Positions 8,960-42,006 of a DNA stretch of 60,525 nucleotides are shown piece by piece (position 1 is the stretch's first letter; every line of letters begins with the position of its first letter). The stretch covers positions 1-60,525 of the forward strand of contig CAYMBX010000001.1 of assembly GCA_964388785.1 (NCBI GenBank), in the 5' to 3' direction. Made by a program: the position numbers and the translations under genes. The DNA comes from an uncultured Gammaproteobacteria bacterium. Lineage in GTDB: Bacteria > Patescibacteriota > Patescibacteriia > UBA9934 > GWF2-40-263. The notes beneath the pieces were generated by a model. The model saw only the letters and a list, made by a program, of their open reading frames with translations. It was not told where the DNA came from and ran no database searches.

Positions 8960-9884
8960 GCAGCATCGATATGAGCATGATCACCGAGCACGGCCTCGTG
9001 ATCCGTGACGAGGAGCGAACACATCGCGTCCTCGTCCGCAAGGACATGTCCCACCTGCTCGGAAAAGATCCGGCGGTGACCTGCCTCAATCCGGACGCTC
9101 CGGAGAACGAGCGGGTCTACCAAAAGGTCTTCACCAAACGTCGCATCTACCTGCCCAGCGAGTACGACCTTGCGGTGACCAATCACCTCAAGGGCAGGTA
9201 CGTCCTCGTGCTCGCGATGAACGGCTACTCGTCCATCAAGCCGGAGCAGTGCGCAGCCTGGGGCATCAAGCCCGGCGCGTATGAGCATGCCTGCCGGAAC
9301 CTCCTCAAGACGGTCTGGGCAACACTCCGCAAGGAGTTCCCCGACCTGGACATCCGGCTCGTCCACGGAAGCTCCGATCTGGGCGTTGACCGAGCGATCA
9401 TCCAGGCAGCCACGGAGCTGCGCCGTGAGACGCTCGGCTTCTCCTGCCCAGAGTATGCATTCTATGTGCCGGACGACGATGACTTCCCGATGTACATTGC
9501 CGCGACCGTCGCGGAGTACTCAGATGCGTTCGTACGCTCCGCCGACGTGCTCATCGCCGCAAACGGCCGGCTGCAGGCCTACCGGATGAACACCTTGTCG
9601 TGTTCGAACACGACAAGGTGTTCATCCCGATCAACGTGCTGCGACTGATCTCGACGCTGGCAGGTCCGCCACCCAAGAATGCGGCAGGCCAAATCGAGGA
9701 TGCGGTCGCGCACTTCGAGCAGCGCCTGCACATGATCGGACAGGACCGTCCGCATGTTCCCGGAACCGTTGCTCACGACAAATGGAAGAGCGCTCTCTGG
9801 GAGCTCGGCGAAGTACTCATCGATGTTTGCCGACATCAACTCGACCCCGAGATCGGTCTCGAGGTTCCCCCTCCGTCCCGCTGA
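8956..9884 (+). pseudogene. Rossmann/SLOG-like protein gene interrupted by a 44-bp palindrome (reads as ORFs 8956..9648 and 9600..9884)
   Basis: Removing exactly 9584..9627 joins frame 1 to frame 3 seamlessly (...ANGRLQAY-P-INVLRLIS...) and gives one ORF of about 294 aa. VHGSSDLGVDRAIIQAA...ADVLIAANG resembles SLOG/YpsA/DprA-type folds (weak). Confidence 0.5.
9584..9627. repeat. Perfect 44-bp palindrome (GGATGAACACCTTGTCGTGTTC|GAACACGACAAGGTGTTCATCC)
   Basis: Checked base by base: 22+22 nt with no mismatch, centred on TTCGAA, inside coding sequence. Confidence 0.95.
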
Positions 9885-9897
9885 CGGAGGGTTTTTT
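9869..9897 (+). terminator. Rho-independent terminator
   Basis: CCCTCCGTC-ccgct-GACGGAGGG followed by TTTTTT. Confidence 0.85.
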
Positions 9898-9916
9898 ATT
9901 AGGTGCAAAAAAACGC

Positions 9917-9956
9917 TTGACAGCATCATTACTTCGTGTGTATACTTACACTAAGT
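9917..9956 (+). promoter_or_regulatory. nrtR promoter (TTGACA-N18-TATACT) with palindromic operator site A, ACTTCGTGT-N8-ACACTAAGT (9931..9956)
   Basis: The -10 box at 9941..9946 lies in the operator spacer. The ATG at 9957 is only 10 nt after the -10 box, so the mRNA is nearly leaderless. Confidence 0.6.
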
Positions 9957-10625
9957 ATGAAACACCACCCTTCTGCCCAAAATGTAAAAGTTGCTGTGGA
10001 CGCGATCATTTTTACCATCAAAAATGATGCACTTCATGTCCTTCTCATCCAAATGAAAAAAACGCCGTTTACAGGACAATGGGCAGTGCCCGGTGGTCTC
10101 ATTGAAGAAAAAGAAACGACGCATGAAGCCGCAACACGTATTTTGCATACCCAAACCGGCGTCAGAGATGTTTACCTGGAGCAGCTCATGACGTTTGACG
10201 ACGTCGAACGGGATCCGGCGGGACGCGTCTTGAGCGTCTCCTACTTCGCCCTTCTCCCAAATGCCGATGCCAAGATCAAAACGACGGAAAAATATTCCGA
10301 TGTCCGTTGGTGGCCGATCAAGAAACTGCCGACACTTGCCTACGATCACCAACCAATGATTCGTCTCGCACGTAAACGCCTTGAATCAAAAATTCAATAT
10401 ACCAACATCGTCTGGAGCTTGCTTCCACGCGAATTCACGCTCACACAACTTCAACGCGTGTACGAAATCATTCTCGATAAACCGCTCGACAAACGCAATT
10501 TTCGAAAACGCCTCTTGGCCCTGGATTTCATCAAACCCACCGGAAAAAAAGAACAAGGAAGTGCGTATCGACCGGCTGCCCTTTATCAATTCAAACAGCA
10601 CACACTTGAATACGTAGAGATTTAA
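9957..10625 (+). CDS. nrtR: NrtR-type regulator (Nudix-like ADP-ribose-sensing domain plus C-terminal winged helix)
   Basis: Degenerate Nudix box GQWAVPGGLIEEKETTHEAATRILHTQTGV (REL changed to RIL, EE lost). C-terminal FTLTQLQRVYEIILDKPLDKRNFRKRL wHTH. Sits directly upstream of NAD genes. Confidence 0.75.
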   Translation: MKHHPSAQNVKVAVDAIIFTIKNDALHVLLIQMKKTPFTGQWAVPGGLIEEKETTHEAATRILHTQTGVRDVYLEQLMTFDDVERDPAGRVLSVSYFALLPNADAKIKTTEKYSDVRWWPIKKLPTLAYDHQPMIRLARKRLESKIQYTNIVWSLLPREFTLTQLQRVYEIILDKPLDKRNFRKRLLALDFIKPTGKKEQGSAYRPAALYQFKQHTLEYVEI

Positions 10626-10626
10626 G

Positions 10627-10650
10627 AAAAAGGGACAAAATCCCTTTTCT
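10627..10650 (+). terminator. Rho-independent terminator of nrtR
   Basis: AAAAAGGGA-caaaa-TCCCTTTT. Confidence 0.7.
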
Positions 10651-10651
10651 C

Positions 10652-10686
10652 TTGACGTATCAGTTAGTGTGTAATATACACTATAT
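10652..10686 (+). promoter_or_regulatory. NAD-island promoter (TTGACG-N17-TATACA) with operator site B, AGTTAGTGT-N7-ACACTATAT (10662..10686)
   Basis: Same half-site and the same -10-in-spacer geometry as sites A and C. About 158-nt leader to the nadD-like ATG. Confidence 0.6.
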
Positions 10687-10844
10687 AAAATCTTACACAA
10701 TTCATTGACAGAACAACGATTTTCTTGTAACGTCTTCCCCTTTCCTGAATCAGTTAATTAGAAATTTGCGCTTGGACTTCTCGAGCATAAATTTCTCACC
10801 TTCAAAGAGTTGGAGGTGAACCGCACTTCAAAACCGAGGACGTC

Positions 10845-11450
10845 ATGAAAAAGGTGTTTGTGCTTGGCGGGAGTTTCAACCCGCCCGCTCTCCACCACGA
10901 AACAATCGTCCGTGAGCTCATCGCAGTGCTCGATTCGAAGGACGAGCTTCTGGTAATCCCCTGCGGCGATCGGCCGGACAAACGGACCACTGGTTCGGTT
11001 GCGCCGATGCATCGCGCCAACCTAGCACGTCTCGCCTTCGGCAAGTTCGATCGAGTCATGCTCGACTTAAGCGATCTCGACCACGACGAGTTCACCCGCA
11101 CCGCCGATCTCAACGATCGGCTTCGCGCGCAGTATCAAGATTATGAGATCATTCTGGTTGTTGGTCAGGATCTGATCGAAGGCGGGGCCACGGGAGCATC
11201 CGAAATCCATCGCGTTTGGCACAGAGACGAAGAGCTGTGGAACGACGCATCGTTCCTTGTGCTCACGCGCGGTGACAAAGTGCCGGATCGAGATGATCTT
11301 CCGCCACACAGCCACGTCCTACAGATCAGCGCGCCCGGCTCGAGCAGCGAGGTCCGATCACTTATTCGTGAAAACCGCGACGTTCGGTCGCTTATCAGCC
11401 CGAAAGTGCACGAATACATCGTGCATCACCGGCTTTACATGGAGAGATGA
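10845..11450 (+). CDS. nadD: Nicotinate/nicotinamide-mononucleotide adenylyltransferase
   Basis: GGSFNPPALHHETIV (GxFxPxHxxH) and C-terminal SAPGSSSEVRSLI (ISST-like). GAGGA Shine-Dalgarno. Confidence 0.8.
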   Translation: MKKVFVLGGSFNPPALHHETIVRELIAVLDSKDELLVIPCGDRPDKRTTGSVAPMHRANLARLAFGKFDRVMLDLSDLDHDEFTRTADLNDRLRAQYQDYEIILVVGQDLIEGGATGASEIHRVWHRDEELWNDASFLVLTRGDKVPDRDDLPPHSHVLQISAPGSSSEVRSLIRENRDVRSLISPKVHEYIVHHRLYMER

Positions 11451-12580
11451 TGGTTACGCGAGAAAGTCGATTTCAAGGTTCGCTCATGGGCGTACGCATC
11501 GGCGACGGCCTCGGTATGCCGTGGGAATCGCTCACCGCCGAGCAGATTCGCGAGCGCACCGATGGGAAGGGCGTGCATACGTACCACTCCCCACAGCAAC
11601 GCAGCGATGCGCCAGCATGGGCTCTGCAGCTCGGGATTCTCAACCCGGGTGACTCAACCGATGACTGGCAGCTCACGCGCGCGACGGCACAAAGTCTCAT
11701 TCGCTGTGGCCAGCTCGATCTCGCCGATCTGGCACGCACCTTCGTCGACGAACACGCGATCTGCCGTCTCGGTTGGGGCGGAACCACCGAGTGGGGCATC
11801 GCGCAGATCGAAGCGTGGTTCAAGACAAACGGAATCGAAGGACGTTCGCCCGGAGAGTTCCCTCCAAATCCGGAAAGCGAGAACGAACGTTTCGGCACCG
11901 GCAACGGAGTCGCGATGCGCATCGCGCCGATCGGCCTGCTGGCCAGCCACGCGTTTAGCGAAGATGGCCGGATCGATGAGGGTGCGCTGATCAGCTTCAT
12001 GGAGTCTGTCTGGGGAGTGGGAGGTCTCACACATCCAGACCCGCGGGCAACGGTCGGCGCATTCGCGATCGCGAGCTTCATTGCGCGACTCACTGCGCGC
12101 GAAGGCCGGCCGCTCGCACAGCACCATCTCCTCAAGATGTTCGACAGTGTGCTCTATGAGGTCACACGCATGGAGCGCGAGTTCGCGTCGACGATCGGCT
12201 GGACGAGAAATCGTGAGCCGTTCTCAGCGCGGATGAACTGGATTCGTCCGCTCATTCTGGCGAATGCGTCCGCAACGCAGATCCGCGTGAAGTTCGGAAC
12301 CTCGAGCTACACACTCGAGTCCGCTGCGTTCTCGATCGCGACCTTTCTGCGCCACCCCACGGACTTCCGCGCCGCCCTGCGGGAGGCCGTCGAGGCCGGC
12401 GGGGATACGGACACCAACGCCGCGATCGTAGGAAGTCTCGTGGGCGCGAACGTTGGACTCGAAGGAATCCCTGAGGAGTGGATGGGGCGCGGGGACTTCC
12501 TTGTGGCGGAGACGCTGGGATCCGATCTCTGGAACCTGGTCCTGGACATCCTCACGTCACCGTACTCCAACGCTTCTTGA
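11447..12580 (+). CDS. ADP-ribosylglycohydrolase family protein (DraG/ARH-like)
   Basis: N-terminal FQGSLMGVRIGDGLGMPWE and C-terminal GGDTDTNAAIVGSLVGA, which are typical ARH metal-site motifs. Start overlaps the nadD stop. Confidence 0.8.
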   Translation: MMVTRESRFQGSLMGVRIGDGLGMPWESLTAEQIRERTDGKGVHTYHSPQQRSDAPAWALQLGILNPGDSTDDWQLTRATAQSLIRCGQLDLADLARTFVDEHAICRLGWGGTTEWGIAQIEAWFKTNGIEGRSPGEFPPNPESENERFGTGNGVAMRIAPIGLLASHAFSEDGRIDEGALISFMESVWGVGGLTHPDPRATVGAFAIASFIARLTAREGRPLAQHHLLKMFDSVLYEVTRMEREFASTIGWTRNREPFSARMNWIRPLILANASATQIRVKFGTSSYTLESAAFSIATFLRHPTDFRAALREAVEAGGDTDTNAAIVGSLVGANVGLEGIPEEWMGRGDFLVAETLGSDLWNLVLDILTSPYSNAS

Positions 12581-12591
12581 TCTCCTTCTTC

Positions 12592-12640
12592 GCGGACCGG
12601 CTGTGCCTCGGTCGGTCCGCACACCCTTTTTCTTCTTTGT
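12592..12640 (+). terminator. Probable terminator hairpin (GCGGACCG...CGGTCCGC followed by a T-run)
   Basis: Read directly. The T-run is 6 nt after the stem, so this is weaker than the other terminators. Confidence 0.5.
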
Positions 12641-12663
12641 CATTTCGAACGAACCCCCTCTCC

Positions 12664-12742
12664 CTTGTCATCCTGAGGGAGCGCAGCGACCGAAGGATCT
12701 CAAAGTCTGTCGGGATCCTTCGCTGACGCTCAGGATGACAGG
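12664..12742. repeat. Long REP-like inverted repeat (CTTGTCATCCTGAG...CGAAGGATC / GATCCTTCG...CTCAGGATGACAGG)
   Basis: Nested arms at 12664-12677/12729-12742 and 12691-12699/12714-12722. Resembles the GTCATCCTGAG...GAAGGATC palindromic elements common in environmental genomes. Confidence 0.75.
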
Positions 12743-12826
12743 AAAGAAAGCACTCAAAGTGATCAAAAGTTCGCCTGAAATGACAGAGTGGAAACCCCAC
12801 TCTTCGCACCTTCCAAGGAGCAAACC

Positions 12827-14116
12827 ATGCGTCCACACGCAGAATTGATCGACGAAATCCTCGACGGCCCGGTCGTCGGCAACATGCTCGACGACGACTT
12901 CTACACCTACTCGATGGGTCAGGCAATCGTCTTGAACCGCCCGCAGGTCGAAGTCGACTTTCGTCTCACCAATCGTTCGCGAGGCGTCGTGCTCACCCAC
13001 GAGGTCAGTCCGGACGAGCTCGCACAAGAGCTCGACCGGCTCAAGGTTCGACGTTTCACTCGGACGGAACTGCACTATGTGCTCGGAACCAACGAGTACG
13101 GTGAGCGCATGTTCCGATCGGAGTACATCGACCACTTGCGCGAGCTTGCACTGCCCGATTTTCATCTGGGAGTTCGGGATGATGGCCAGTTCGATCTGCG
13201 CTTTCCGGGCGTTTGGTCTCGGGCCATGCACTGGGAAGTTCCGGCCCTCGCGGCGATCAACGGGCTGCGCATGCGCAATGCTCTGCGGCGGATGACACCC
13301 TTCCAGCGTGATGAGGTCATCGCGCGCGGTGTTGCACGGTTGGGCGAGAAAATCCGCGTCATCCGTGAACTTCCGGGTCTCACGTTCACGGACTTCGGAA
13401 CACGGCGCCGCTTCCATCGTGCCTGGCAGCGCTACATCGACAAGACGCTTGCGCAGGAACTCCCCGGACAATTCCTGGGAACCTCGAACGTCGAGGCAGC
13501 CATGGACTTCGGGCTTCTGCCCATGGGCACCAACGCCCACCAGATGTTCATGGTGATCGCCGCGCTCATGAGCGAAACGGATGAAAGTCTGCTGCGCTCA
13601 CACAACCAGGCCCTGCGCGAGTGGTGGCAGCTCTACGGATGGGGTCTCTCAATCGCGCTCACCGACACCTTCGGCACGGACTTCTTCTTCCGTGACTTCA
13701 CGCCCGAACAGGCGCGCGCATGGAAGGGTCTGCGCCAGGACTCCGGGGATCCGATCGTGTTCGGACACAAGGCACTCGACTACTACCATCGCCGTGGCAT
13801 CGATCCGAAAGAGAAGCTTCTCATCTTCTCGGACGGACTCGATCTCGACATGATCGTCCGGCTCTACAACGAGTTCAAGAACGAGATCAAGGTGAGCTTC
13901 GGATGGGGAACGTTGCTCACCAACGACCTCGGACTCTCACCGATCTCGATCGTCATCAAGGCCATGCGCGCAAGGCGTGATGCGGGAAGCGTGTGGATCG
14001 ACACCTGCAAGCTCTCCGACAACATCGCCAAGGCGATGGGTACACGTGAGACGATCGACCGTTACGCACGTGTGTTCGGCTACGACTCGCACTTCGAGGA
14101 GACACCGATCGTCTGA
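12827..14116 (+). CDS. pncB: Nicotinate phosphoribosyltransferase
   Basis: N-terminal MLDDDFYTYSMGQA (the LDTDxYKxTM pattern), about 430 aa. AAGGAG Shine-Dalgarno 6 nt before ATG 12827; the ORF-track GTG at 12788 was rejected. Confidence 0.85.
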   Translation: MRPHAELIDEILDGPVVGNMLDDDFYTYSMGQAIVLNRPQVEVDFRLTNRSRGVVLTHEVSPDELAQELDRLKVRRFTRTELHYVLGTNEYGERMFRSEYIDHLRELALPDFHLGVRDDGQFDLRFPGVWSRAMHWEVPALAAINGLRMRNALRRMTPFQRDEVIARGVARLGEKIRVIRELPGLTFTDFGTRRRFHRAWQRYIDKTLAQELPGQFLGTSNVEAAMDFGLLPMGTNAHQMFMVIAALMSETDESLLRSHNQALREWWQLYGWGLSIALTDTFGTDFFFRDFTPEQARAWKGLRQDSGDPIVFGHKALDYYHRRGIDPKEKLLIFSDGLDLDMIVRLYNEFKNEIKVSFGWGTLLTNDLGLSPISIVIKAMRARRDAGSVWIDTCKLSDNIAKAMGTRETIDRYARVFGYDSHFEETPIV

Positions 14117-14222
14117 TGCTCCTTTCCCTCCCTGACCAGCCTCACTGGTCGCTTTTCGCCAGCTGCTCACCATATGGTGGGACGCTGACGATTCGTATTG
14201 TTCTTCACAACGAGGTAACCCC

Positions 14223-16271
14223 ATGACCGTCAAGGTACAAACCGTTCGCGGACGTTCAACGTCGCATGGGTTCGCTCGCGTCGCCGCCGCCTCCTTTTGG
14301 ACGCGCCCGGCTGCGATTGAGCAGAATTTGCAGCGTCACCTCGAAGCCGCTCGCGAGGCGGACGCCGAGCGCGTTCAACTGCTCGTCTTCCCTGAACTCG
14401 GCCTCACCGGCTACGCTTGTCGCGATCTCTTCCGGGACGACCACCTGCGCGTGCGTGCGCTCGAAGCGCTTCGGACGTTCTGCGACGAAACCCAGGACAT
14501 GGGAACCGTGTTCGTAGTCGGTCTGCCGCTCGCACTCAACGGTCTGTACAACGTGGCAGCTGTCGTCATTCACGGAGAGGTGCTGGCACTCATCCCCAAA
14601 TCCTTCCTCGCGGCTCGCAGTGAGTGGCAGGAAGACGAATGGTTCGTGCCGGCGTCGCACCTGCAGACCGAGTCGGTCATCCTGCCCTGGCAGAAAGAAG
14701 CCGTTCCGATCGGAACGGACATTCTGATCGAGGTGATGGACGAGAACGATGAAGAGCAGGTGTTCGTTCTGGGTGTCGAAATCTGTGCGGACGGCTGGCA
14801 GGCCGGCTCGCCCGGTGATCGGCTGGCACTCAACGGCGCGACCGTCATCGCCAACCTCTCGGCATCCAACTGGGTGCTCGGGAAGGACAAATGGCGTGAG
14901 GTCGTCTTCCCGGCCAGCTCGGGTCAGCAGAAGGCCGTCTACATCTACTGCACGATGGCTGGCGACTCGACCGCGAGCGTCACTTGGGACGGCCACTGCT
15001 TCATCGCCGAGGACGGCAACATCCTCGCGCGTTCCAAGCGTTGGCTCACGCCCACGCAGAGCGACCTTAGCGTCGCAGACGTGGACATCGCGCGCCTTCT
15101 GCGCGATCGAATGGTCGACGGCGAGTGGGCACAGGCCGAACATCTCCACCAATCGCCGCACCGAAAGATCACCGCCTTCGTGCGCACCTGGCCCGCGGAC
15201 GTCAACGATTTCCGCCGCCCGCTCACGCGCATGCCGTTTGTCCCGAAGGACGCAGCGGTGATGCACGAGGTCGCAACCGAACTGTTCCAGGGTCTCGCCC
15301 AAGGACTGATCGGCCGACTCTGGACGATGAAAAATGGTCAGCCGATCGATACCTACCTTGGCCTCTCCGGCGGGTCGGACTCTACGCTCGTCTATCTCAT
15401 CGCGTGCTACGTCTACGATCGGCTCGGCTGGGACCGCAAGCACTTGCACGCGGTGCGCCTGCCCGGGCCCGCCTCGAGCACGCGCACACAGCGCAACTCA
15501 CGCCTGCTCGCGCAGGCGATGGGGACGAGTCTGCACACCGTCAACATCACGAAGCTCGCCACGCGCGCGCTGCGTGACGTGGGACACGAGCCGTGCTGGC
15601 AGTGCCTCCAGTGCGAGAACGCACAGGCACGCGCCCGCACGTTCGTGCTCATGACCTACGGATTCGTTCTGGGCACCGGCGACATGACCGAAAAGGTGCT
15701 TGGATGGGCCACCTATAACGGCGACCAGATGTCGATGTACGACGTCATCGCCGGAGTGCCCAAGACGCTCGTGCGCTACCTCATCGCCGCCTACGTCGAA
15801 CACATGACCAAGGACATGGTGGTGAGACGCACGCTTCGAAGCATCCTCGCCGAGGTGATCTCGCCCGAGCTCGTCAAAGTCAAGCCCGGCGAACCGATCC
15901 AGTCTTCCGAGGCGAAGATCGGTCCGTACGATCTCAACGACTTCTTCCTCTACCATGTGATCCGCACCGGCGCCACGCCCGCGCGGATCGCCTTCCTCGC
16001 ACAGATCGCGTTCTCGAGGAAGGAACGTGAGACGGACCTCATCTACAACCTGCCAACCATCCTCACGTGGTTGAAGAGCTTCTACAGCCGGTTCAACCCG
16101 GCCCAGTACAAGCGAAATGCCGGTGCGGATAGCGTGCTTATTGGATCGGTGGGAATCGGCCCACACGACAAGCTGCGTTTGCCCTCCGACGGCGATGTGT
16201 TGATCTATCTGCGTGAGGTTGAGGCCATGCTGACGGCTGTCAGCTCATGCACCGAGGCGGCTGCAGCGTAA
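14223..16271 (+). CDS. nadE: Glutamine-dependent NAD+ synthetase (CN-hydrolase domain plus NAD synthetase domain)
   Basis: N-terminal nitrilase-like LLVFPELGLTGY...EICAD. C-terminal LGLSGGSDST PP-loop. 682 aa. GAGGT Shine-Dalgarno. Confidence 0.9.
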   Translation: MTVKVQTVRGRSTSHGFARVAAASFWTRPAAIEQNLQRHLEAAREADAERVQLLVFPELGLTGYACRDLFRDDHLRVRALEALRTFCDETQDMGTVFVVGLPLALNGLYNVAAVVIHGEVLALIPKSFLAARSEWQEDEWFVPASHLQTESVILPWQKEAVPIGTDILIEVMDENDEEQVFVLGVEICADGWQAGSPGDRLALNGATVIANLSASNWVLGKDKWREVVFPASSGQQKAVYIYCTMAGDSTASVTWDGHCFIAEDGNILARSKRWLTPTQSDLSVADVDIARLLRDRMVDGEWAQAEHLHQSPHRKITAFVRTWPADVNDFRRPLTRMPFVPKDAAVMHEVATELFQGLAQGLIGRLWTMKNGQPIDTYLGLSGGSDSTLVYLIACYVYDRLGWDRKHLHAVRLPGPASSTRTQRNSRLLAQAMGTSLHTVNITKLATRALRDVGHEPCWQCLQCENAQARARTFVLMTYGFVLGTGDMTEKVLGWATYNGDQMSMYDVIAGVPKTLVRYLIAAYVEHMTKDMVVRRTLRSILAEVISPELVKVKPGEPIQSSEAKIGPYDLNDFFLYHVIRTGATPARIAFLAQIAFSRKERETDLIYNLPTILTWLKSFYSRFNPAQYKRNAGADSVLIGSVGIGPHDKLRLPSDGDVLIYLREVEAMLTAVSSCTEAAAA

Positions 16272-16283
16272 CCGCGCCTCTCT

Positions 16284-16312
16284 GCAGCGAACTCCCTGTT
16301 CGCTGCTTTTTT
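16284..16312 (+). terminator. Rho-independent terminator after nadE
   Basis: GCAGCGAAC-tccct-GTTCGCTGC followed by TTTTTT. Confidence 0.85.
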
Positions 16313-16347
16313 GTTAAGTGGTAGGAGTGAAGTGTGAGGGGATCGGG

Positions 16348-16380
16348 TTGACGAATTTCAAAAATTCGTGCATAATTCGT
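16348..16380 (+). promoter_or_regulatory. Internal promoter TTGACG-N17-CATAAT with inverted repeat ACGAATTT-ca-AAATTCGT (16351..16369) and a third AATTCGT at 16374
   Basis: Read directly, in a low-GC spacer between nadE and the Nudix pair. Confidence 0.55.
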
Positions 16381-16412
16381 CCTCGCGATTAACGTTGCGA
16401 GCAACTCGGAGA

Positions 16413-17210
16413 ATGGAAATGTCACATTCCATCATGATCAACGGGCGAACAGTGCCCGTGACCGGCCAATACGCACCGGAGGCGGTCGACAGCCCACTCC
16501 TCAAGGACTGGGCGACTTCGCTCGATCCCCGCATCGTCGTGAACAAGGTGAAGGTGCTCGCACTCGTCCTGTTTGGAAAGCTGCCAAAACTCCGCGTCGG
16601 GTTCATGATGATCGATGCGGAGATGACGCTCGATGGCAAGTCCATTCCCGGCGTGGCGTTCCTGCGCGGCGATGCGGTCGCCATCTTCGTCGAAGTCAAC
16701 TGCGAGGGTGAGCGCTACGCACTCATGACCGTTCAACCACGCGGGCCGGTCGGCGAACTACTCGTCGAAATCCCGGCCGGCATGATGGACGGCAGTGGTC
16801 ACTTCCTCGGCAAGGCCGCGGACGAGCTACGCGAAGAAACGGACATCGAGATCGACCCCGCGCAACTCATCGATCTGTGTGCGCTTGCGCAAGGGTCGCC
16901 GGCGCCGCGTGGCGTCTACACGTCCCCAGGCGGCAGCGACGAGGCCATTCACTACTACTGGTACCGCGTCGTCCTCAGCCGCGAGGAGCTCAAGGAACTC
17001 GAAGGCAAGGCTACCGGTCTGCTCGAGGAGGGCGAACAGATCACGCTCAAGGTCGTCCCCTTCGGCGAGCTCGCCCGATACCGCGACGGCAAGCTCATGA
17101 CCGCACTCGGTCTGCTCGCCGTCATGGAACTCGCGGAGACGTACAGGATCGTCGATCGCGCCGTTGTGAACGCAGATCTCAACAAGGCGGCAATCGAAGC
17201 CGCTGCCTAG
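16413..17210 (+). CDS. Nudix hydrolase, ADP-sugar/ADP-ribose pyrophosphatase-like
   Basis: PAGMMDGSGHFLGKAADELREETDIEI Nudix box and a long N-terminal dimerisation-type domain as in ADPRases. Start chosen at ATG 16413 after GGAGA. Confidence 0.7.
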   Translation: MEMSHSIMINGRTVPVTGQYAPEAVDSPLLKDWATSLDPRIVVNKVKVLALVLFGKLPKLRVGFMMIDAEMTLDGKSIPGVAFLRGDAVAIFVEVNCEGERYALMTVQPRGPVGELLVEIPAGMMDGSGHFLGKAADELREETDIEIDPAQLIDLCALAQGSPAPRGVYTSPGGSDEAIHYYWYRVVLSREELKELEGKATGLLEEGEQITLKVVPFGELARYRDGKLMTALGLLAVMELAETYRIVDRAVVNADLNKAAIEAAA

Positions 17211-17225
17211 TCCAAGGAGACAGAC

Positions 17226-17678
17226 GTGAGCCACTACCGAAATCCTACCCCCGTCGTGGTCGTCATCCAGCCTGTGCGCCGACTTGATGGGAGTTCGGGT
17301 GTCATCCTCGTCCGACGAACCATCGAACCCGCCAAGGGTGAGCTGGTTCTGCCAGGCGGCTACCAAGTGATCGAGGACTGGCGGGATGCCGGCGCACGCG
17401 AACTTTTGCAAGAGGCGAGCATCGAGGTCGATCCTTCGACACTCCGACGATTCGGCTACGAGTCGACGCCGGACAACAGCAAGATCATCCTGTTCTGCGT
17501 GGCACCCGAGCTCGACGAGCGAGATCTCCCCGCCTTCGAGCCGCTGCCCAACGAATCGGGTGTTGTCGAGACGAGCCAACGGGTCATCGGAACGCTCGAT
17601 GATCTGCACCTCATCCCCTGGTCGCTGCACCAGTTCGCGTTTGCACGATTCCTGCGCGGCGATCCGTTCCTCCCCTAA
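17226..17678 (+). CDS. Nudix hydrolase
   Basis: VLPGGYQVIEDWRDAGARELLQEASIEV Nudix box. GTG start with AAGGAG Shine-Dalgarno. Confidence 0.7.
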   Translation: MSHYRNPTPVVVVIQPVRRLDGSSGVILVRRTIEPAKGELVLPGGYQVIEDWRDAGARELLQEASIEVDPSTLRRFGYESTPDNSKIILFCVAPELDERDLPAFEPLPNESGVVETSQRVIGTLDDLHLIPWSLHQFAFARFLRGDPFLP

Positions 17679-17699
17679 CTCCCCTGCGGGAGTTTTTTG
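17678..17699 (+). terminator. Rho-independent terminator
   Basis: ACTCCC-ctgc-GGGAGT followed by TTTTTT. Confidence 0.75.
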
Positions 17700-17743
17700 T
17701 TTTCCTTCTCTTCATAACTCCAGTCCGGACGTTCATCTGCCTT

Positions 17744-17785
17744 GCCGAAGGGAACAACGGTGATGAGTCCGTTGGCCCGAAGGCA
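17744..17785. repeat. REP-like element, family 2 copy (GCCGAAGGGAACAACGG-N8-CCGTTGGCCCGAAGGCA)
   Basis: Near-identical to 1393..1433. Lies between convergent genes. Confidence 0.75.
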
Positions 17786-17819
17786 GGGCAGACGAACGAA
17801 CAACATAAAAAGGACGCTT

Positions 17820-19160
17820 TCACGTCCAAGAAAAAAGATCGCCGCCGGTCTTTTTCGAAAAATCGACGTAACGATCAACGAAGTTGATGACGCACGCGGC
17901 GTCTACGTCGCGGTGAAACGCAATGTTGGGTCCGTGTCCGTCGAGCTGCACCGCGTAGATGCCGGGTTCGATCTCGCGCATGTTGGAGGCGGTGTTGAAT
18001 CCACATTCGTTCGAACCGCATTCAAACGGTTTCTGGCTCGCCGTCGGGATCATCTGCTCGCCTTCGCGCGTGAGCGGACAGTGCACATGCACGATCGCAT
18101 GGACCTTGTCAGCAAACCGTTCGTAGATTTGCTGCTGGGTGTGTTCGCCGACCGAGGGTCGAGCGCCCGCCGCGATGATGCTTCCATCCTCATCGCCAAA
18201 GATCTTTGCCATGCCGTCCTCGAGCACACGGTTGTGATCGGTCTTGCGCACCGAACTCACACGTACGTACGGCTCGCCATCGACAAAGCATCCGAAGTGC
18301 CCGCTCGTTTTTCCGAGAAACGATTTGAAGCCGCCACGTGCGATCAGATGCTCGAGCACCGGAACGAAGTTCTGCGGAATCTTGCCCTGCGCATACAGTT
18401 CACGAACATTCGCCCTCTCGCCTTCCCGCATCGTGGTACGCACGAAGGTGAGTTTGGTACGATCTGCGATCATCTCACAAAGCAGATCGAGTGCTTCACC
18501 TCGCGATGAAGTCGCGTACGGAAATTCCTCTGGGGTCACCACGAGGTTCGTGTGACGCACCACGTCGTTTGCGAGCACGAGGTTTGCACTGTTCCTCTTG
18601 AGGAGCTTCAGTCCGCGCGCGTACGTCTCCTGTTCACTCTGTCCGGCCGTCGTTTTGAACGCGACCAGAAAGATGTCTTTGCGCGTACGACGAACCGTTG
18701 TAAGCAACTTCTCGCTGGGAACGATCGTAAGCGTGTGTTCACGATCGGACGACAGACGCGGATGTATGTGCTTGCCGAAGACAGTTGGATCCGTGTAGGT
18801 CGGAGTGATCTGCAATGGTTCGAAATCGCACACGGCCGCGGCAGCGATGATGCAACGCGTCGATGGGTCTGTTGCGAGATGTGTCAGCAGAGCTTCCAAA
18901 TCCTCGTTGGTGACCAGGTCATGGATACCGACTTTCGCGAACAGCTCTTCGTCTTCTTGTGCACGATCCCATCCTCCCTGTGCCATGCGTGTGAGGACCA
19001 GGCGAACTTCCGCGCCCTCGTGCCCGGCCCTGATAAGGGCACCCGGCAGTCGACCTACAAGCTCACGTCCAACTTTGCCGAACGCCGGTGCGGAAAGCGC
19101 GAAATGCGGCGAGACGTGGTTGAACGTTCCACCCGCAATGACGTAATACACACATTTCAT
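17820..19160 (-). CDS. Fusion protein: phosphopantothenate-cysteine-ligase-like (DFP/CoaB fold) N-domain plus class II aldolase/adducin-like C-domain
   Basis: N-domain: VIAGGTFNHVSPHFALSAPAFGKVG and AAAVCDF (compare the CoaB patterns TAGGT..PID and AAAVaDy). C-domain: GKTSGHFG, ARPSVGEHTQQQIYERFADKVHAIVHVHCP, LDGHGPN (class II aldolase pattern PSsE..H..iY...aivHtH). AGGAGG Shine-Dalgarno. Confidence 0.6.
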   Translation of the reverse strand: MKCVYYVIAGGTFNHVSPHFALSAPAFGKVGRELVGRLPGALIRAGHEGAEVRLVLTRMAQGGWDRAQEDEELFAKVGIHDLVTNEDLEALLTHLATDPSTRCIIAAAAVCDFEPLQITPTYTDPTVFGKHIHPRLSSDREHTLTIVPSEKLLTTVRRTRKDIFLVAFKTTAGQSEQETYARGLKLLKRNSANLVLANDVVRHTNLVVTPEEFPYATSSRGEALDLLCEMIADRTKLTFVRTTMREGERANVRELYAQGKIPQNFVPVLEHLIARGGFKSFLGKTSGHFGCFVDGEPYVRVSSVRKTDHNRVLEDGMAKIFGDEDGSIIAAGARPSVGEHTQQQIYERFADKVHAIVHVHCPLTREGEQMIPTASQKPFECGSNECGFNTASNMREIEPGIYAVQLDGHGPNIAFHRDVDAACVINFVDRYVDFSKKTGGDLFSWT

Positions 19161-38520: not shown

Positions 38521-38550
38521 TAAAAAGCAGGGTTCACGAGGGAACCCTGC
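38521..38550 (-). terminator. Rho-independent terminator of the PP2C-kinase operon
   Basis: GCAGGGTTC-loop-GAACCCTGC with a T-run on the minus strand. Confidence 0.8.
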
Positions 38551-38565: not shown

Positions 38566-38919
38566 CTACGCGCCGAAGCCCGACGCAGCGGTCTGACTGA
38601 AGCCGGCGCCGCCCTGGCTGGCGCGCACCGCCGACTGGGAGACGACGGCCATGGCCGCGCGGATCTCGCTGGGCGTGTTGCCCGGGGTCAGGACGAACTC
38701 GCGCGGGATCCCCATGGATTCCGCGACCTTGTGGAAGTCCGTGTGGCCGTCCTTGATCCCGATGAAGAAGACGAGGTGCGTCTCGCGACGCAGCATGTCC
38801 TCCACGATCGCCTTGACGCTCGCGGGCGTCTGGTGGCGGGAGTGCTCGTCCATCTTGGGGCGGTAACCCCAGATGCCGGCGTTCTTGGGATCGAAATGTT
38901 GAGGCATCGGAAGCTGCAT
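38566..38919 (-). CDS. Small hypothetical protein, third gene of the PP2C-kinase operon
   Basis: ATG 38919 with GAGAGGAA Shine-Dalgarno. 117 aa with a Gly/Ala/Ser/Gln-rich tail. The HLVFFIGIKDGHTDFHKVAESMGIP segment faintly recalls the last beta-alpha units of vWA domains, but there is no DxSxS MIDAS motif. Confidence 0.55.
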   Translation of the reverse strand: MQLPMPQHFDPKNAGIWGYRPKMDEHSRHQTPASVKAIVEDMLRRETHLVFFIGIKDGHTDFHKVAESMGIPREFVLTPGNTPSEIRAAMAVVSQSAVRASQGGAGFSQTAASGFGA

Positions 38920-39003: not shown

Positions 39004-40950
39004 TCAGGACATCTTCAGCAGGTGGATCTCATCTCTGCGGATCACGTAGATCCCCTCCTTCGCGTAGAACAGCCGCGAGGAGGCGTCGACAAAGGGCTCC
39101 GTGTCGGCGAAGTGGCGCGTCTGCACGATCCCGGTAGGCTCGGCATCCACGCATACAATCCCTTCATCCGTCGGCACGAACAGGACGTGTCGGATCCCGC
39201 CACCCTGCTTGGGCAGCGTCACGGCACATCCGCCGCGAATGTCACTCAGCCACGATCCGTCGCCGTCCGTAGCCTCATGGCTCGCGATCACTTTCCCGTC
39301 TGGTGCGAGCACCGTGCAACGGTTGATCAGGTTGCCGAGGTGCTGGCTCTTGGTGAAGAACCAAACTCCGTTAGACGAGAAGACGGCGTGCGCGTCCACC
39401 AGCTGCCCGGGGATGGGCGGCAGGTTGACACTATCGTTGAGCGACCGCTTTGCCTCGTTGAAGACGAACGCCTGGAAGAGCGCGCCGGCTCGGTAGAATC
39501 CGAATCCGAACGCCGGCCCCGTCCAGATGACCGTCTGTCCGCTCAGCACGTTACCGATCAGCTCGGTGGTGTCGATGCCGAAGTTACCTTCGCGCACGAG
39601 CTGTCCGCCCTGAAGACGAAACAGCGTCTTGGCGGTGGTGTCGAACATCGGCTTGTGACCGAACGTATCGACGTTCAACGCCTTGGGTGCCTCGCCTGGT
39701 TCGATCGCAACGAGCCGTCCGCCAAGCCCGATCAGGGTACGCGTTCCGCTGATGCGCAAACGCATCTCGGGGCGTGCAGGCTGTGTGAACACGACGGTCG
39801 CATCTTCGCGACGAATCTGTCCGCCCTCTTCGTAGAGGTAGACGAGCTTTCCGTCTTGCATCGCGACCTGCAGAATCCGACCGTGAGCACGCCCGTTGGG
39901 GAACAACCTAGTAGCTGTCACCTTTCCACGTACGGTCACATGCTGCGCGATCGCCGCCGCGGCCACACCGCACTGCGGACAAGTCCGCCGTGCGTGCTCG
40001 AAGCCGCAGTCATTGCACTTCGTCCATCGCAAGTTCTCAAGCAGACTCGCCTCGACCTCGCCGCGGCGATCCTTCTCGAACACGTCGAGGAAGAACTGAA
40101 GCAGTTCGTCGGGAAGTAGCTTGGGGCTGCGCGCCGGCTTGGGGTAGATGACGTCTGCGCCAAGCACGCTTGCCCGCCTGAGGCTTCGCGCATCATGCGC
40201 GATCCTTTGGCTGGCTTCTTTGGGCTTGTGCACTCCCCCGTACGGTCCGGTCCACAGCAGGCTCTCAAAGAGCATGACCAGGAACGCGAACCAATCGGAG
40301 TTGGTGGTGTGCGGTTTGATGAGCATCGGCTTGGTCGCCGCGGGATCGCACAGCATTGGGTCGACGAATCGCGCCGTGAACATCGGACTCAGGAAATTGC
40401 CGAACTGCATGGAGTCCGCGTCGACGAGCATCGGGATTGCCTCGGGCGTGCCAATCTTTTGGATAAGCACGTTGAGGTCGTTGAAATCCGCGATGATGAT
40501 CCCCGCCTTGTGGATCTGCGCGACCAGAGTGCGCAGACGCAGGAAGAAATGAACCAGATCCTTGGGCGCGATCTGCTTGCGCAGACCTTTGTCGTCGTGT
40601 AGAGCCATGAGCTCGCGTGCATCGACGATAAGGGGCATGGTGTAGCCGTAGATCGCTCCCTTCCTGTCGGTCGCAAGGTCCACAGGCGCGATCAGACCGC
40701 TCGGCAGGTCCTTTTTGGGGAACGCCGCCAGTTTTGTCTGATGCGTGGCGATGCGCTGTCGTGCCTCCCGTGCGAGCCGTTCACGATCCGGCCCCGGCGG
40801 AAGCGACACGATGTCGGGGTGGTCGGGCGTCTTGAACACCTTGAGTGCCTTATCGCCCAGCCGATAGACGTCGGCTTCACCACCTTTTCCGAGCACCATG
40901 GCCGGATCCAGACGAACTCGGTTTCCGGCGACGATCAATTCGGTAAGCAT
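39004..40950 (-). CDS. Ser/Thr protein kinase-like protein (648 aa) with central zinc ribbon and a large C-terminal domain
   Basis: VLGKGGEADVYRLGDKALKVFK (G-loop plus lysine), HKAGIIIADFNDLNVLI (catalytic loop), LVDADSMQF (DFG-like), CNDCGFEHARRTCPQCG. GGAGG Shine-Dalgarno. Start is 2 nt after the PP2C stop. Confidence 0.75.
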   Translation of the reverse strand: MLTELIVAGNRVRLDPAMVLGKGGEADVYRLGDKALKVFKTPDHPDIVSLPPGPDRERLAREARQRIATHQTKLAAFPKKDLPSGLIAPVDLATDRKGAIYGYTMPLIVDARELMALHDDKGLRKQIAPKDLVHFFLRLRTLVAQIHKAGIIIADFNDLNVLIQKIGTPEAIPMLVDADSMQFGNFLSPMFTARFVDPMLCDPAATKPMLIKPHTTNSDWFAFLVMLFESLLWTGPYGGVHKPKEASQRIAHDARSLRRASVLGADVIYPKPARSPKLLPDELLQFFLDVFEKDRRGEVEASLLENLRWTKCNDCGFEHARRTCPQCGVAAAAIAQHVTVRGKVTATRLFPNGRAHGRILQVAMQDGKLVYLYEEGGQIRREDATVVFTQPARPEMRLRISGTRTLIGLGGRLVAIEPGEAPKALNVDTFGHKPMFDTTAKTLFRLQGGQLVREGNFGIDTTELIGNVLSGQTVIWTGPAFGFGFYRAGALFQAFVFNEAKRSLNDSVNLPPIPGQLVDAHAVFSSNGVWFFTKSQHLGNLINRCTVLAPDGKVIASHEATDGDGSWLSDIRGGCAVTLPKQGGGIRHVLFVPTDEGIVCVDAEPTGIVQTRHFADTEPFVDASSRLFYAKEGIYVIRRDEIHLLKMS

Positions 40951-40952
40951 GG

Positions 40953-41801
40953 TTACTGCCTCCGTCCCACGATCAGCGTCGTGTCGTCCTTGAGATGACC
41001 TGCTTCGGTGACCAACCGTCGTGCGTCCCAATCCGGCAACACGGAGGTGAGGTTCGCCAAAGCCAAGCGTCTGCGGATGTTATCCGTGTTTCTAAAGAAC
41101 CGCTCTTCCTCCCAGAACTGGGACAGCGGGCCGACGAGCTGATCTTTGCCGGGCAGGCGCAGCTGGCTTGCGCGCACGAAGTGGCGCAAACCGTCTGTCC
41201 CGACCAGGAAATGATCCAGTCGTTCGGTGCTGACGACTTGGAGGATCTCGAACTTGAGCGACTCCGGCTTCACATCCGCAAGCGACGTGTCCACCAGCGC
41301 GTACGCCAGATACACCGGCGCGTTTCCTGCTTCCGGTTCGATCCAGAACTCCTCGCCGTTGATGATGATGAGACCGTCTCCGCGGGAGAAGAACACGCAG
41401 AACTCTTCGGTCAGAATCGCGCCGACGAGTGTGAATAGGAAGTGCTCGTTGATCGTGGACGAATAGGATCCACCCATCGAGAGCGCAAGTGTGCGCATCT
41501 GTGCAAGCACATCCTGTCGGGCACGCTCCAGGATCTTCATGAACTGCATCCTGGGTGCATCGTCCGTCTTCTGCCAACGCTTGAGCTGGAACGCGAGTGC
41601 ACTCTGCAACAAGCGCACGCCGATTTTGGCGCCGACTTCGCTGTGTGCACCGGAACCGCACCCGTCCGCCACGAGGCAGATCTGTGTGGAACCGAACACT
41701 GATTCGCTGGACGTGATTCCATAGGCGTCATGTCCATTGGATTCTTTGAGCGCCTGACGATGATCGGTTCCAACAACGGAACCGGCAGCCAATTCGAACA
41801 T
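40953..41801 (-). CDS. PP2C-family protein phosphatase (PP2C_2-like)
   Basis: LVADGCGSGAHSEVGAKIG and FLVGTDGL motifs. ATG 41801 with GGAGG Shine-Dalgarno; the longer ORF-track start at 41912 lies in the low-GC leader and was rejected. Confidence 0.7.
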   Translation of the reverse strand: MFELAAGSVVGTDHRQALKESNGHDAYGITSSESVFGSTQICLVADGCGSGAHSEVGAKIGVRLLQSALAFQLKRWQKTDDAPRMQFMKILERARQDVLAQMRTLALSMGGSYSSTINEHFLFTLVGAILTEEFCVFFSRGDGLIIINGEEFWIEPEAGNAPVYLAYALVDTSLADVKPESLKFEILQVVSTERLDHFLVGTDGLRHFVRASQLRLPGKDQLVGPLSQFWEEERFFRNTDNIRRRLALANLTSVLPDWDARRLVTEAGHLKDDTTLIVGRRQ

Positions 41802-41968
41802 GTCGTCGACCTCCAATGAGATCTCAATAAATGTCTCGGTTGTAGGGAACGGTCGAGGGAGTGTTCCACTCGTTTTTAACCCCGAATCTTGGGTCAAAAA
41901 CCAACGGAACAAGACCGCGAACCTTACGCGTTTTTTAGAATTTTGTCAATCTTCATCCCTCGCTATTT

Positions 41969-42006
41969 ACTTAGTGTAATATATACACATAGTAAAATCT
42001 TGTCAA
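41969..42006 (-). promoter_or_regulatory. PP2C-kinase operon promoter (minus strand TTGACA 42006-42001, N17, TATATT 41983-41978) with operator site C, ACTTAGTGT-N7-ACACATAGT (41969..41993)
   Basis: Same half-sites and -10-in-spacer layout as sites A and B at nrtR and the NAD island. Confidence 0.6.

Follow-up and report, generated by a model that had tools for sequence, protein, structure and literature searches.

Probable operators of an NrtR-family repressor on the NAD genes of a patescibacterial genome

The window analyzed here, a stretch of 60,525 nucleotides, is contig 1 of the 59-contig assembly (G000; 1,008,369 bases, 51% G+C, 100% complete by marker genes) of an uncultured bacterium of the Patescibacteriota. 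It encodes a regulator of the NrtR type at 9957-10625 and contains three palindromes, here called operators A, B and C (Table 1), which in all likelihood are the operators of this NrtR-family repressor. Operators A and B lie on either side of nrtR, with an operon for nicotinamide adenine dinucleotide (NAD) synthesis following B, and operator C is situated about 31 kb from both, ahead of an operon for a PP2C-type phosphatase and a putative Ser/Thr protein kinase. Together they would make up a NAD-gene switch of an ordinary, well-known kind, and our results support as essentially right the reading of a first-pass annotation, which had placed an NrtR-type gene between two palindromes, with a block of nadD, ADP-ribosylglycohydrolase (ARH), pncB and nadE genes downstream, and had proposed autoregulation plus control of that block by NrtR. 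The gene identities were borne out by domain matches, and the proposed control is consistent with the positions of the sites in relatives, which point to a regulon wider than the NAD genes. To this reading we would add an operator that recurs across phyla together with a BtAraR-type DNA-reading helix, a variant of the operator with an 8-nt spacer, tandem promoters, and a PP2C/kinase cassette as a putative member of the regulon.

Three palindromes and their counterparts in relatives

The coordinates and sequences previously given for operators A and B agree with the DNA, and the third of the "three sites" mentioned in the first-pass annotation corresponds to operator C, which was found by a genome-wide pattern search. 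The arms are complementary at 8 of 9 positions in operator A, which is directly abutted by the ATG of nrtR (9957), and at 7 of 9 in operator B. The published NrtR operator is a palindrome of about 21 bp with the core GT-N7-AC (PMC2330246); GTGT-N7-ACAC in operators B and C matches this core, and operator A has the N8 form.

The genome was scanned in full, at spacers of 4 to 11, with a half-site matrix of 9 nt built from 19 sites, all of them from other genomes. Operator C (25.9 bits) was the best site in the genome, followed by A (25.3 bits), the sole N8 match above 17 bits, and B (23.2 bits), with the next-best match at N7 or N8 anywhere in the 1,008,369 bases scoring 16.9 bits. When all spacers were considered, one further match exceeded 17 bits (20.8 bits, spacer 9, at C9:183); its position is within an open FG-GAP-like reading frame, and we set it aside as a chance match. 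Twenty simulated genomes generated with a second-order Markov model yielded 2 sites of 20 bits or more in all (0.1 per genome), compared with three of at least 23 bits in the real genome. The promoter pattern TTGACA-N16-18-TAnnnT occurred 108 times, against 22 for the reversed control (about five-fold enriched), and the organism therefore uses canonical promoters, of which three carry the palindrome. Since there are only three high-scoring sites, and most of the 108 promoters are without a palindrome, the motif is neither scattered nor a generic promoter feature. Loose IUPAC patterns were uninformative in the window (3 matches versus 0.8 expected, and 1 versus 0.12), and the matrix test was used instead. 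In the matrix scan, the three sites stand alone in G000, and in relatives sites recur at nrtR and at NAD genes.

Among 60 relatives of the same order, 14 have an NrtR orthologue at E < 1e-50, and sites in relatives were called at 17 bits or more. Directly ahead of nrtR, 11 of the 14 have a site, usually in the layout TTGACA-N8-TACTTTGTGT-N7-ACACTAA followed by ATG within 8-13 nt, and so do 5 of another 10 loci identified by way of the protein (L032-L040, L046). After nrtR and before the next operon, a site is present in 9 of the 14 orthologue loci. The N8 spacer at the nrtR site, a lineage-specific variant, is limited to G000 and its two closest relatives, G002 (of the same genus) and G030, the remaining relatives having N7; the -35 and -10 hexamers of nrtR are 18 nt apart in G000 and 16 nt apart in the N7 relatives. 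The extra base in operator A may be tied to this promoter spacing or may tune the strength of nrtR self-repression.

The motif also precedes NAD genes in relatives. Specifically, G014 (L119, G014:C46) has tandem sites (2475-2499 and 2509-2533) on a TTGACA promoter before pnuC, encoding a nicotinamide mononucleotide transporter, and a nadR-like gene whose product combines cytidylyltransferase-like and AAA_28 domains, and pnuC-nadR is a classical NrtR target. In G008 and G055, moreover, nadD follows nrtR with the motif in between, and in L040 the motif precedes pncB. The pattern TWNGTGT-N7-ACACNWA was counted 22 times in the 15 nrtR-bearing genomes, compared with 7 in the 46 that lack nrtR; the count is our own, covers related genomes and is descriptive only. 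The NrtR_WHD domain is present in 14 of 301 sampled genomes of the phylum, with G000 counted in. One 26-bit site in G022, a genome without nrtR, was rejected, as it falls within an open reading frame (ORF) of 472 aa.

Other sites in relatives precede genes of less obvious connection. A 25-bit site on a TTGACA promoter in L118 (G007:C1, 2466-2490) is followed by a Band_7/SPFH gene and by another gene that weakly matches NAD kinase. Intergenic sites before ORFs without a Pfam match or similarity to the cassette described below were observed in G035:C14 (L115, 1416-1440, 30 bits), G032:C35 (L114, 2500) and G008:C2 (L117, 2771); the latter two score 18-20 bits, and both genomes, as well as G035, carry nrtR.

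Rodionov et al. (2008) described NrtR regulons that include nadD, nadE and pncB, autoregulation, and a link of nrtR to draG, an ARH gene, in Streptomyces (PMC2330246). The system described here resembles theirs in its Nudix-like sensor with a winged helix-turn-helix (HTH), its palindrome with a GT-N7-AC core and its autoregulatory site, but differs in its host, a Candidatus Uhrbacteria-like member of the Patescibacteria, in the longer arms of its 25-bp site (ACTTAGTGT-N7-ACACTAAGT), and in the N8 autoregulatory site, the near-leaderless nrtR mRNA and the PP2C/kinase operon in the predicted regulon. No paper naming both NrtR and Patescibacteria was found in the literature searched.

Table 1. 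Positions of the predicted genes, operators, promoters and terminators in the window
Feature	Position	Strand	Description
Terminator of the gene upstream of nrtR	9869-9891		Terminator scan
nrtR promoter	9917-9946	+	TTGACA (9917-9922), 18-nt spacer, TATACT (9941-9946); promoter scan 11/12
Operator A	9931-9956		ACTTCGTGT (9931-9939), spacer GTATACTT (9940-9947), ACACTAAGT (9948-9956); N8 form
nrtR	9957-10625	+	222 aa; Nudix-like domain and NrtR winged helix
Hairpin after nrtR stop	10629-10647	+	AAAGGGA-CAAAA-TCCCTTT; read by eye; absent from terminator-scan list
NAD-operon promoter P1	10652-10680	+	TTGACG (10652-10657), 17 nt, TATACA (10675-10680)
Operator B	10662-10686		AGTTAGTGT (10662-10670), spacer GTAATAT (10671-10677), ACACTATAT (10678-10686); N7 form
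Promoter P2, operator-free	10705-10733	+	TTGACA (10705-10710), 17 nt, TAACGT (10728-10733); starts 18 nt past operator B
nadD-like	10845-11450	+	Target operon (10845-16271)
ARH	11447-12580	+	Target operon
pncB	12788-14116	+	Target operon
nadE, glutamine-dependent	14223-16271	+	Target operon
Strong terminator	16284-16306		After nadE
Hairpin and T-run	~38550..38522	-	After remnant ORF
Remnant ORF	38566-38919	-	Matches only the C-terminal ~95 aa of the ~265-aa vWA-like protein Y
648-aa protein	39004-40950	-	Ser/Thr protein-kinase fold, four-cysteine zinc ribbon, all-beta C-terminal domain
PP2C_2-family phosphatase	40953-41801	-	First gene past operator C; PF13672 at 9e-16
Second operator-free promoter, operator C operon	41921-41949	-	TTGACA (41949..41944), 17 nt, TAAGGT (41926..41921); 19 nt past operator C
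Operator C	41969-41993		ACTTAGTGT-AATATAT-ACACATAGT; N7 form; on minus-strand promoter
Operator C promoter		-	-35 TTGACA (42006..42001), 17 nt, -10 TATATT (41983..41978) within spacer

The NrtR protein, its DNA-reading helix and its possible effector

NrtR matches PF00293 (NUDIX, 5.1e-16, residues 13-136) and PF21906 (NrtR_WHD, 9.8e-27, residues 154-212), and scores 156 bits against NCBIfam NF050029, under the equivalog cut-off of 400. Its N-terminus, MKHHPSAQN, is kept from the ATG at 9957 in orthologues, and the arm pattern H-x-S-x-Q-N is conserved in the closest ones (G000, G002, G030, G008, G027 and G032).

The nearest solved relatives are the Bacteroides thetaiotaomicron arabinose repressor BtAraR (5bs6, 1e-44) and the Shewanella oneidensis repressor SoNrtR (3gz5, 3e-37). 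In its recognition helix, D178-KRNFRKR-185, NrtR does not differ from BtAraR, and this helix is kept in all orthologues that have the operator, including one cyanobacterial and one acidobacterial protein. The co-crystal of BtAraR with DNA shows a dimer spanning 25 bp, in which the GTGT motif is defined by residues K179, R180, N181 and K184 of helix alpha-6 (PMC4666351). This identity of the GTGT-reading helix is, short of experiment, the most direct support for NrtR as the reader of the motif, a role that the first-pass annotation had assigned to it by inference and that also agrees with the fit to GT-N7-AC and with the recurrence of the motif at nrtR. The system resembles that of BtAraR (5bs6/5dd4/5ddg/5deq; PMC4666351) in the DKRNFRKR helix with its intercalating R180, in the 25-bp coverage and in the occurrence of tandem sites a few bp apart. 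It differs in that the arabinose triad of BtAraR, Arg34, Arg86 and His131, is broken, the arabinose-specific Arg34 being replaced by Met33 and the other two retained as R85 and H131, and in that the predicted targets are NAD and ADP-ribose genes, not arabinose genes. NrtR should therefore be read as sharing the DNA-reading solution of BtAraR but having a different effector and a different regulon.

The NrtR family has a perturbed form of the Nudix signature GX5EX7REUXEEXGU, and most of its members are sensors rather than hydrolases (PMC2330246). In NrtR of G000, the Nudix box (G47-V69) reads G47-LIEEK-E53-TTHEAAT-R61-ILHTQ-TGV, with the glutamates of REUXEE replaced, and the domain is predicted to be catalytically dead. 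As regards the ligand, SoNrtR (3gz5/3gz6/3gz8), a repressor of prs-nadV that is released by ADP-ribose, shares with NrtR the fold, the order of the domains, the NAD-salvage targets and the Arg and His of the ribose pocket, but differs from it in the residues contacting the ADP moiety of the ligand: the contacts named for SoNrtR as R41, N43, K76 and R98 (PMC4666351) align with M33, K35, Q66 and A88. Because these four residues differ, ADP-ribose is not to be assumed as the effector, and the earlier proposal of this ligand, borrowed from SoNrtR and Synechocystis NrtR, finds no support in the pocket residues; we would rate ADP-ribose itself as no better than a coin toss. The presence of ARH in the operon and of two Nudix genes next door makes a NAD-related ribosyl compound a likely effector from context. 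Another regulator of the family, NdnR, has NAD+ as its co-repressor.

The predicted regulon and the PP2C/kinase cassette

The target operon of operator B includes pncB, although no isochorismatase/nicotinamidase-family gene (PF00857) was detected anywhere in the G000 assembly; the cell would therefore depend on external nicotinate, not nicotinamide. Beyond the terminator that follows nadE, the promoter of the Nudix genes (16348-16376; TTGACG-N17-CATAAT) has a different inverted repeat in its spacer (ACGAATTT / AAATTCGT). With a promoter of their own and a different repeat beyond the terminator, the two Nudix genes would thus be outside the control of the ACTTAGTGT operator.

The operon past operator C begins with a gene for a PP2C phosphatase, whose homologues in G027, G051 and G014 likewise have upstream operators. 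The 648-aa protein that follows has more than 1,100 homologues, with 43-66% identity among the best 120 listed, from Patescibacteria, cyanobacteria, Acidobacteria and a metagenome-assembled genome (MAG) labelled Aenigmarchaeota. Its invariant residues (GxGG, K37, D155/N160 and D177) are those expected of an active kinase, and its AlphaFold2 model (pLDDT 92.5) gave Foldseek matches to the kinase domains of CaMKII and ULK1. In other genomes, these two genes form a four-gene cassette with those of proteins X (divergent, nicotinamidase-like) and Y (von Willebrand factor A-like, vWA-like). A model of X from 8 sequences (pLDDT 87) had nicotinamidases as all of its top 20 PDB matches (target-normalised TM-scores mostly 0.68-0.76), and X keeps the invariant D56, K219 and C270 together with a DxH motif. 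Protein Y contains a DDSGS (DxSxS) motif typical of vWA domains, on which motif the vWA reading rests, and a sequence-profile search of Y against PDB gave no match. The kinase, X and Y have no Pfam family on record. The G000 cassette has kept PP2C, the kinase and the C-terminal ~95 residues of Y but has no X, and that of G014 (L010) has kept only a PP2C fragment and a Y fragment; the G000 cassette thus looks like a copy that has decayed by deletion.

The genes surrounding the cassette are nrtR, NAPRTase, Nudix, NAD kinase, Prs, NadE, ARH, PARG and NADAR. Upstream of PP2C, the operator, often in tandem, was found in L126 (Leptolyngbya), L127 (a Blastocatellia MAG), G027, G014, G051, L037 and L040; L126 has an operator pair before the kinase gene as well, and in L132 and L032 the operator is upstream of nrtR, which heads the cassette. 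The operator was absent from the cassette loci L128, L130 and L131, all without nrtR within 7 kb, and therefore tracks the regulator rather than the cassette. In L127 and L132, Band_7 and NAD kinase genes border the cassette as well. Rodionov et al. (2008) listed nrtX and nrtY as NrtR targets of unknown function (PMC2330246), and no later paper using these names was found; the cassette genes may or may not be the same, and we found no published description of the four-gene cassette. We consider it an evenly balanced proposition that the NrtR clade with the BtAraR-identical helix travels across Patescibacteria, Cyanobacteria and Acidobacteria together with the operator and the cassette, that the cassette is a phospho-signalling or conflict module wired to NAD salvage, where it would sense or control the step from nicotinamide to nicotinate, and that operator C controls a decayed copy of it.

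These neighbourhoods bear on the purpose of the regulon. Instead of housekeeping NAD homeostasis, it might serve a response induced by the cleavage of NAD or by ADP-ribosylation, such as a phage attack or a conflict with a host might bring about; freed ADP-ribose or a related product would then turn on ARH, NAD refilling (pncB, nadD and nadE) and the PP2C/kinase module. This explanation, which is compatible at the DNA level with operators bound by NrtR, is possible but rather doubtful. It draws on the ARH gene within the controlled operon, on the position of the cassette beside ARH, PARG, NADAR, Nudix and Band_7 genes in other phyla, and on the patchy and decaying state of the cassette in the G000 lineage. 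It also accords with Iyer et al. (2022), who predicted that certain ARG-centred systems act against ADP-ribosylation by viruses (PMC9503650). In these systems, the ARG gene is not coupled to an ART or a sirtuin, the repressor is of the Nudix-HTH or WYL type, and a phosphatase is coupled together with a chaperone that binds peptides, for instance vWA. The present system is similar in that a Nudix-HTH repressor would control ARH, in its coupled phosphatase, its vWA-type protein and its NADAR, PARG and Nudix neighbours, and in its patchy distribution, but differs in that ARH is embedded in a biosynthetic NAD operon, the phosphatase is of the PP2C type and the vWA-like gene is a remnant. Phosphatases of the rhodanese, calcineurin-like, HD and HAD types are listed in that paper, which never mentions "PP2C" and uses "kinase" six times, always in contexts other than this cassette (PMC9503650). 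Against an inducible response stand the core biosynthetic role of nadD and nadE and the same motif at pnuC-nadR in G014, a homeostatic target. In addition, PADLOC gave a single weak match (the kinase to PD-T4-6, at 6e-5) and none for the other three proteins, and comparison of the kinase with plasmids and phages gave only distant kinase-domain matches of ~25% identity.

Promoter geometry, proposed mode of action and meaning

If the palindromes are operators of NrtR, their placement on the promoters indicates how they could act. The first-pass annotation had described two TTGACA-type promoters with -10 hexamers embedded in the spacers of the palindromes; both features hold at operator A, with its promoter at 9917, but not at operator B, where the -35 reads TTGACG and the -10 TATACA straddles the spacer and the right arm. 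This TATACA is the only -10 at a workable distance from TTGACG, and P1 is missing from the promoter-scan list because the final base of the hexamer is A, not T. A geometry like that of P1 is common to G007, G035 and G014 (TTGACA-N16/17-TACACT or TATACA). Three registers can be distinguished: at nrtR, the -35 is 7-8 nt ahead of the left arm and the -10 is in the spacer; in the operator-B type (G000, G007, G035 and G014), the -35 is 3-4 nt ahead of the left arm and the -10 (TATACA or TACACT) straddles spacer and right arm; and at operator C, the -10 occupies spacer positions 2-7. All three registers put the operator over the -10 box, which is consistent with the promoter occlusion proposed earlier, tempered by the second promoters at B and C. 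Operator A spans, besides the -10 box, the expected transcript start of nrtR, which has no Shine-Dalgarno sequence and begins with an ATG 10 nt after the -10, and most orthologues share this near-leaderless arrangement.

Both target operons have a downstream promoter of the form TTGACA-N17-TAAnGT, and similar operator-free promoters are located past the operators in G007, G035, G027 and G008. These P2-type promoters are probably the basal promoters of the target operons, an assignment that makes sense since nadD and nadE are essential. Owing to the second promoters past operators B and C, occlusion would modulate expression rather than shut it off. The folding of the long leaders (~105 nt) at 10741-10847 (+, nadD operon) and 41802-41912 (-, PP2C operon) is more stable than that of shuffled controls (z of -2.65 and -3.16, respectively), and in the nadD leader a hairpin pairs GGAGGUG at 10813-10819. 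In an Rfam scan covering 9000-18000 (E up to 1), neither riboswitches nor RNA families of any other kind were detected, and the two long leaders do not match Rfam.

In the mechanism that we favour, an NrtR dimer would sit with one winged-helix domain on the GTGT core and the other on the ACAC core of the operator and cover about 25 bp, a stretch that holds the -10 of a sigma-70-type promoter and, at nrtR, also the transcript start, abutting the start codon. RNA polymerase would be kept off these promoters because bound NrtR covers the -10 hexamer. A small molecule in the dead Nudix domain would swing the DNA-binding domains apart and free the DNA, as in solved structures of the NrtR family, thereby derepressing nrtR, the nadD/ARH/pncB/nadE operon and the PP2C/Ser-Thr kinase operon (38.6-41.8 kb), with the operator-free promoter 18-19 nt past the operator probably keeping up basal transcription at both target operons.

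Several observations weigh against this mechanism. The spacer of operator A is 8 nt, whereas the family rule and every relative further removed have 7, and no autoregulatory site reached 17 bits in G006, G013 and G052, although a weaker one could be discerned by eye in G052. The hexamers of P1 are weak, and the operator-free P2 means that occlusion cannot silence the operon; were P2 the main promoter, operator B would be located at about -55 to -79, a poor spot for a repressor. To these must be added the altered ADP contacts described above.

The promoter observations lend themselves to another explanation, in which NrtR binds but acts at operators B and C mainly as a roadblock to read-through from upstream, or on P2 from its distant position, possibly as an activator. 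The recurrence of operator-free promoters 18-19 nt past the operators, the weakness of P1, and the separation of nrtR from operator B by nothing more than a weak hairpin (10629-10647, possibly a weak terminator) would suit such a role. We regard it as unlikely, given that three independent geometries overlap a -10-like hexamer with a TTGAC(A/G) -35 at 16-18 nt and that the characterised NrtR-family members named in the cited papers are all repressors.

That a transcription factor other than NrtR binds the palindromes is very improbable: the motif occupies the autoregulatory position of nrtR in many genomes belonging to three phyla, is about 10-fold commoner in genomes with nrtR, is absent from the cassette loci without a nearby nrtR, and fits the GTGT specificity of the identical helix. 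Chance matches or a generic promoter feature can practically be dismissed, for while AT-rich spacers with -10-like hexamers inflate the apparent symmetry and the loose patterns are not strongly enriched in the window, the arms alone, scored with a matrix from other genomes, single out exactly three sites in 1 Mb, the motif lies on only 3 of ~108 TTGACA-type promoters, and site positions are conserved across relatives.

To our knowledge, regulators are very scarce in bacteria of the candidate phyla radiation, and hardly any of them has an assigned operator. Here, a regulator, its motif and its regulon could be stated with good confidence for such a bacterium from sequence alone. The predicted regulon, in which NrtR would act as repressor, spans the whole Preiss-Handler route from nicotinate to NAD together with ARH, suggesting that the refilling of NAD is tuned from an externally obtained precursor. 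In addition, the operator shared with the cassette of PP2C, kinase, nicotinamidase-like and vWA-like genes may provide an entry point into a large family of conserved "hypothetical" proteins.

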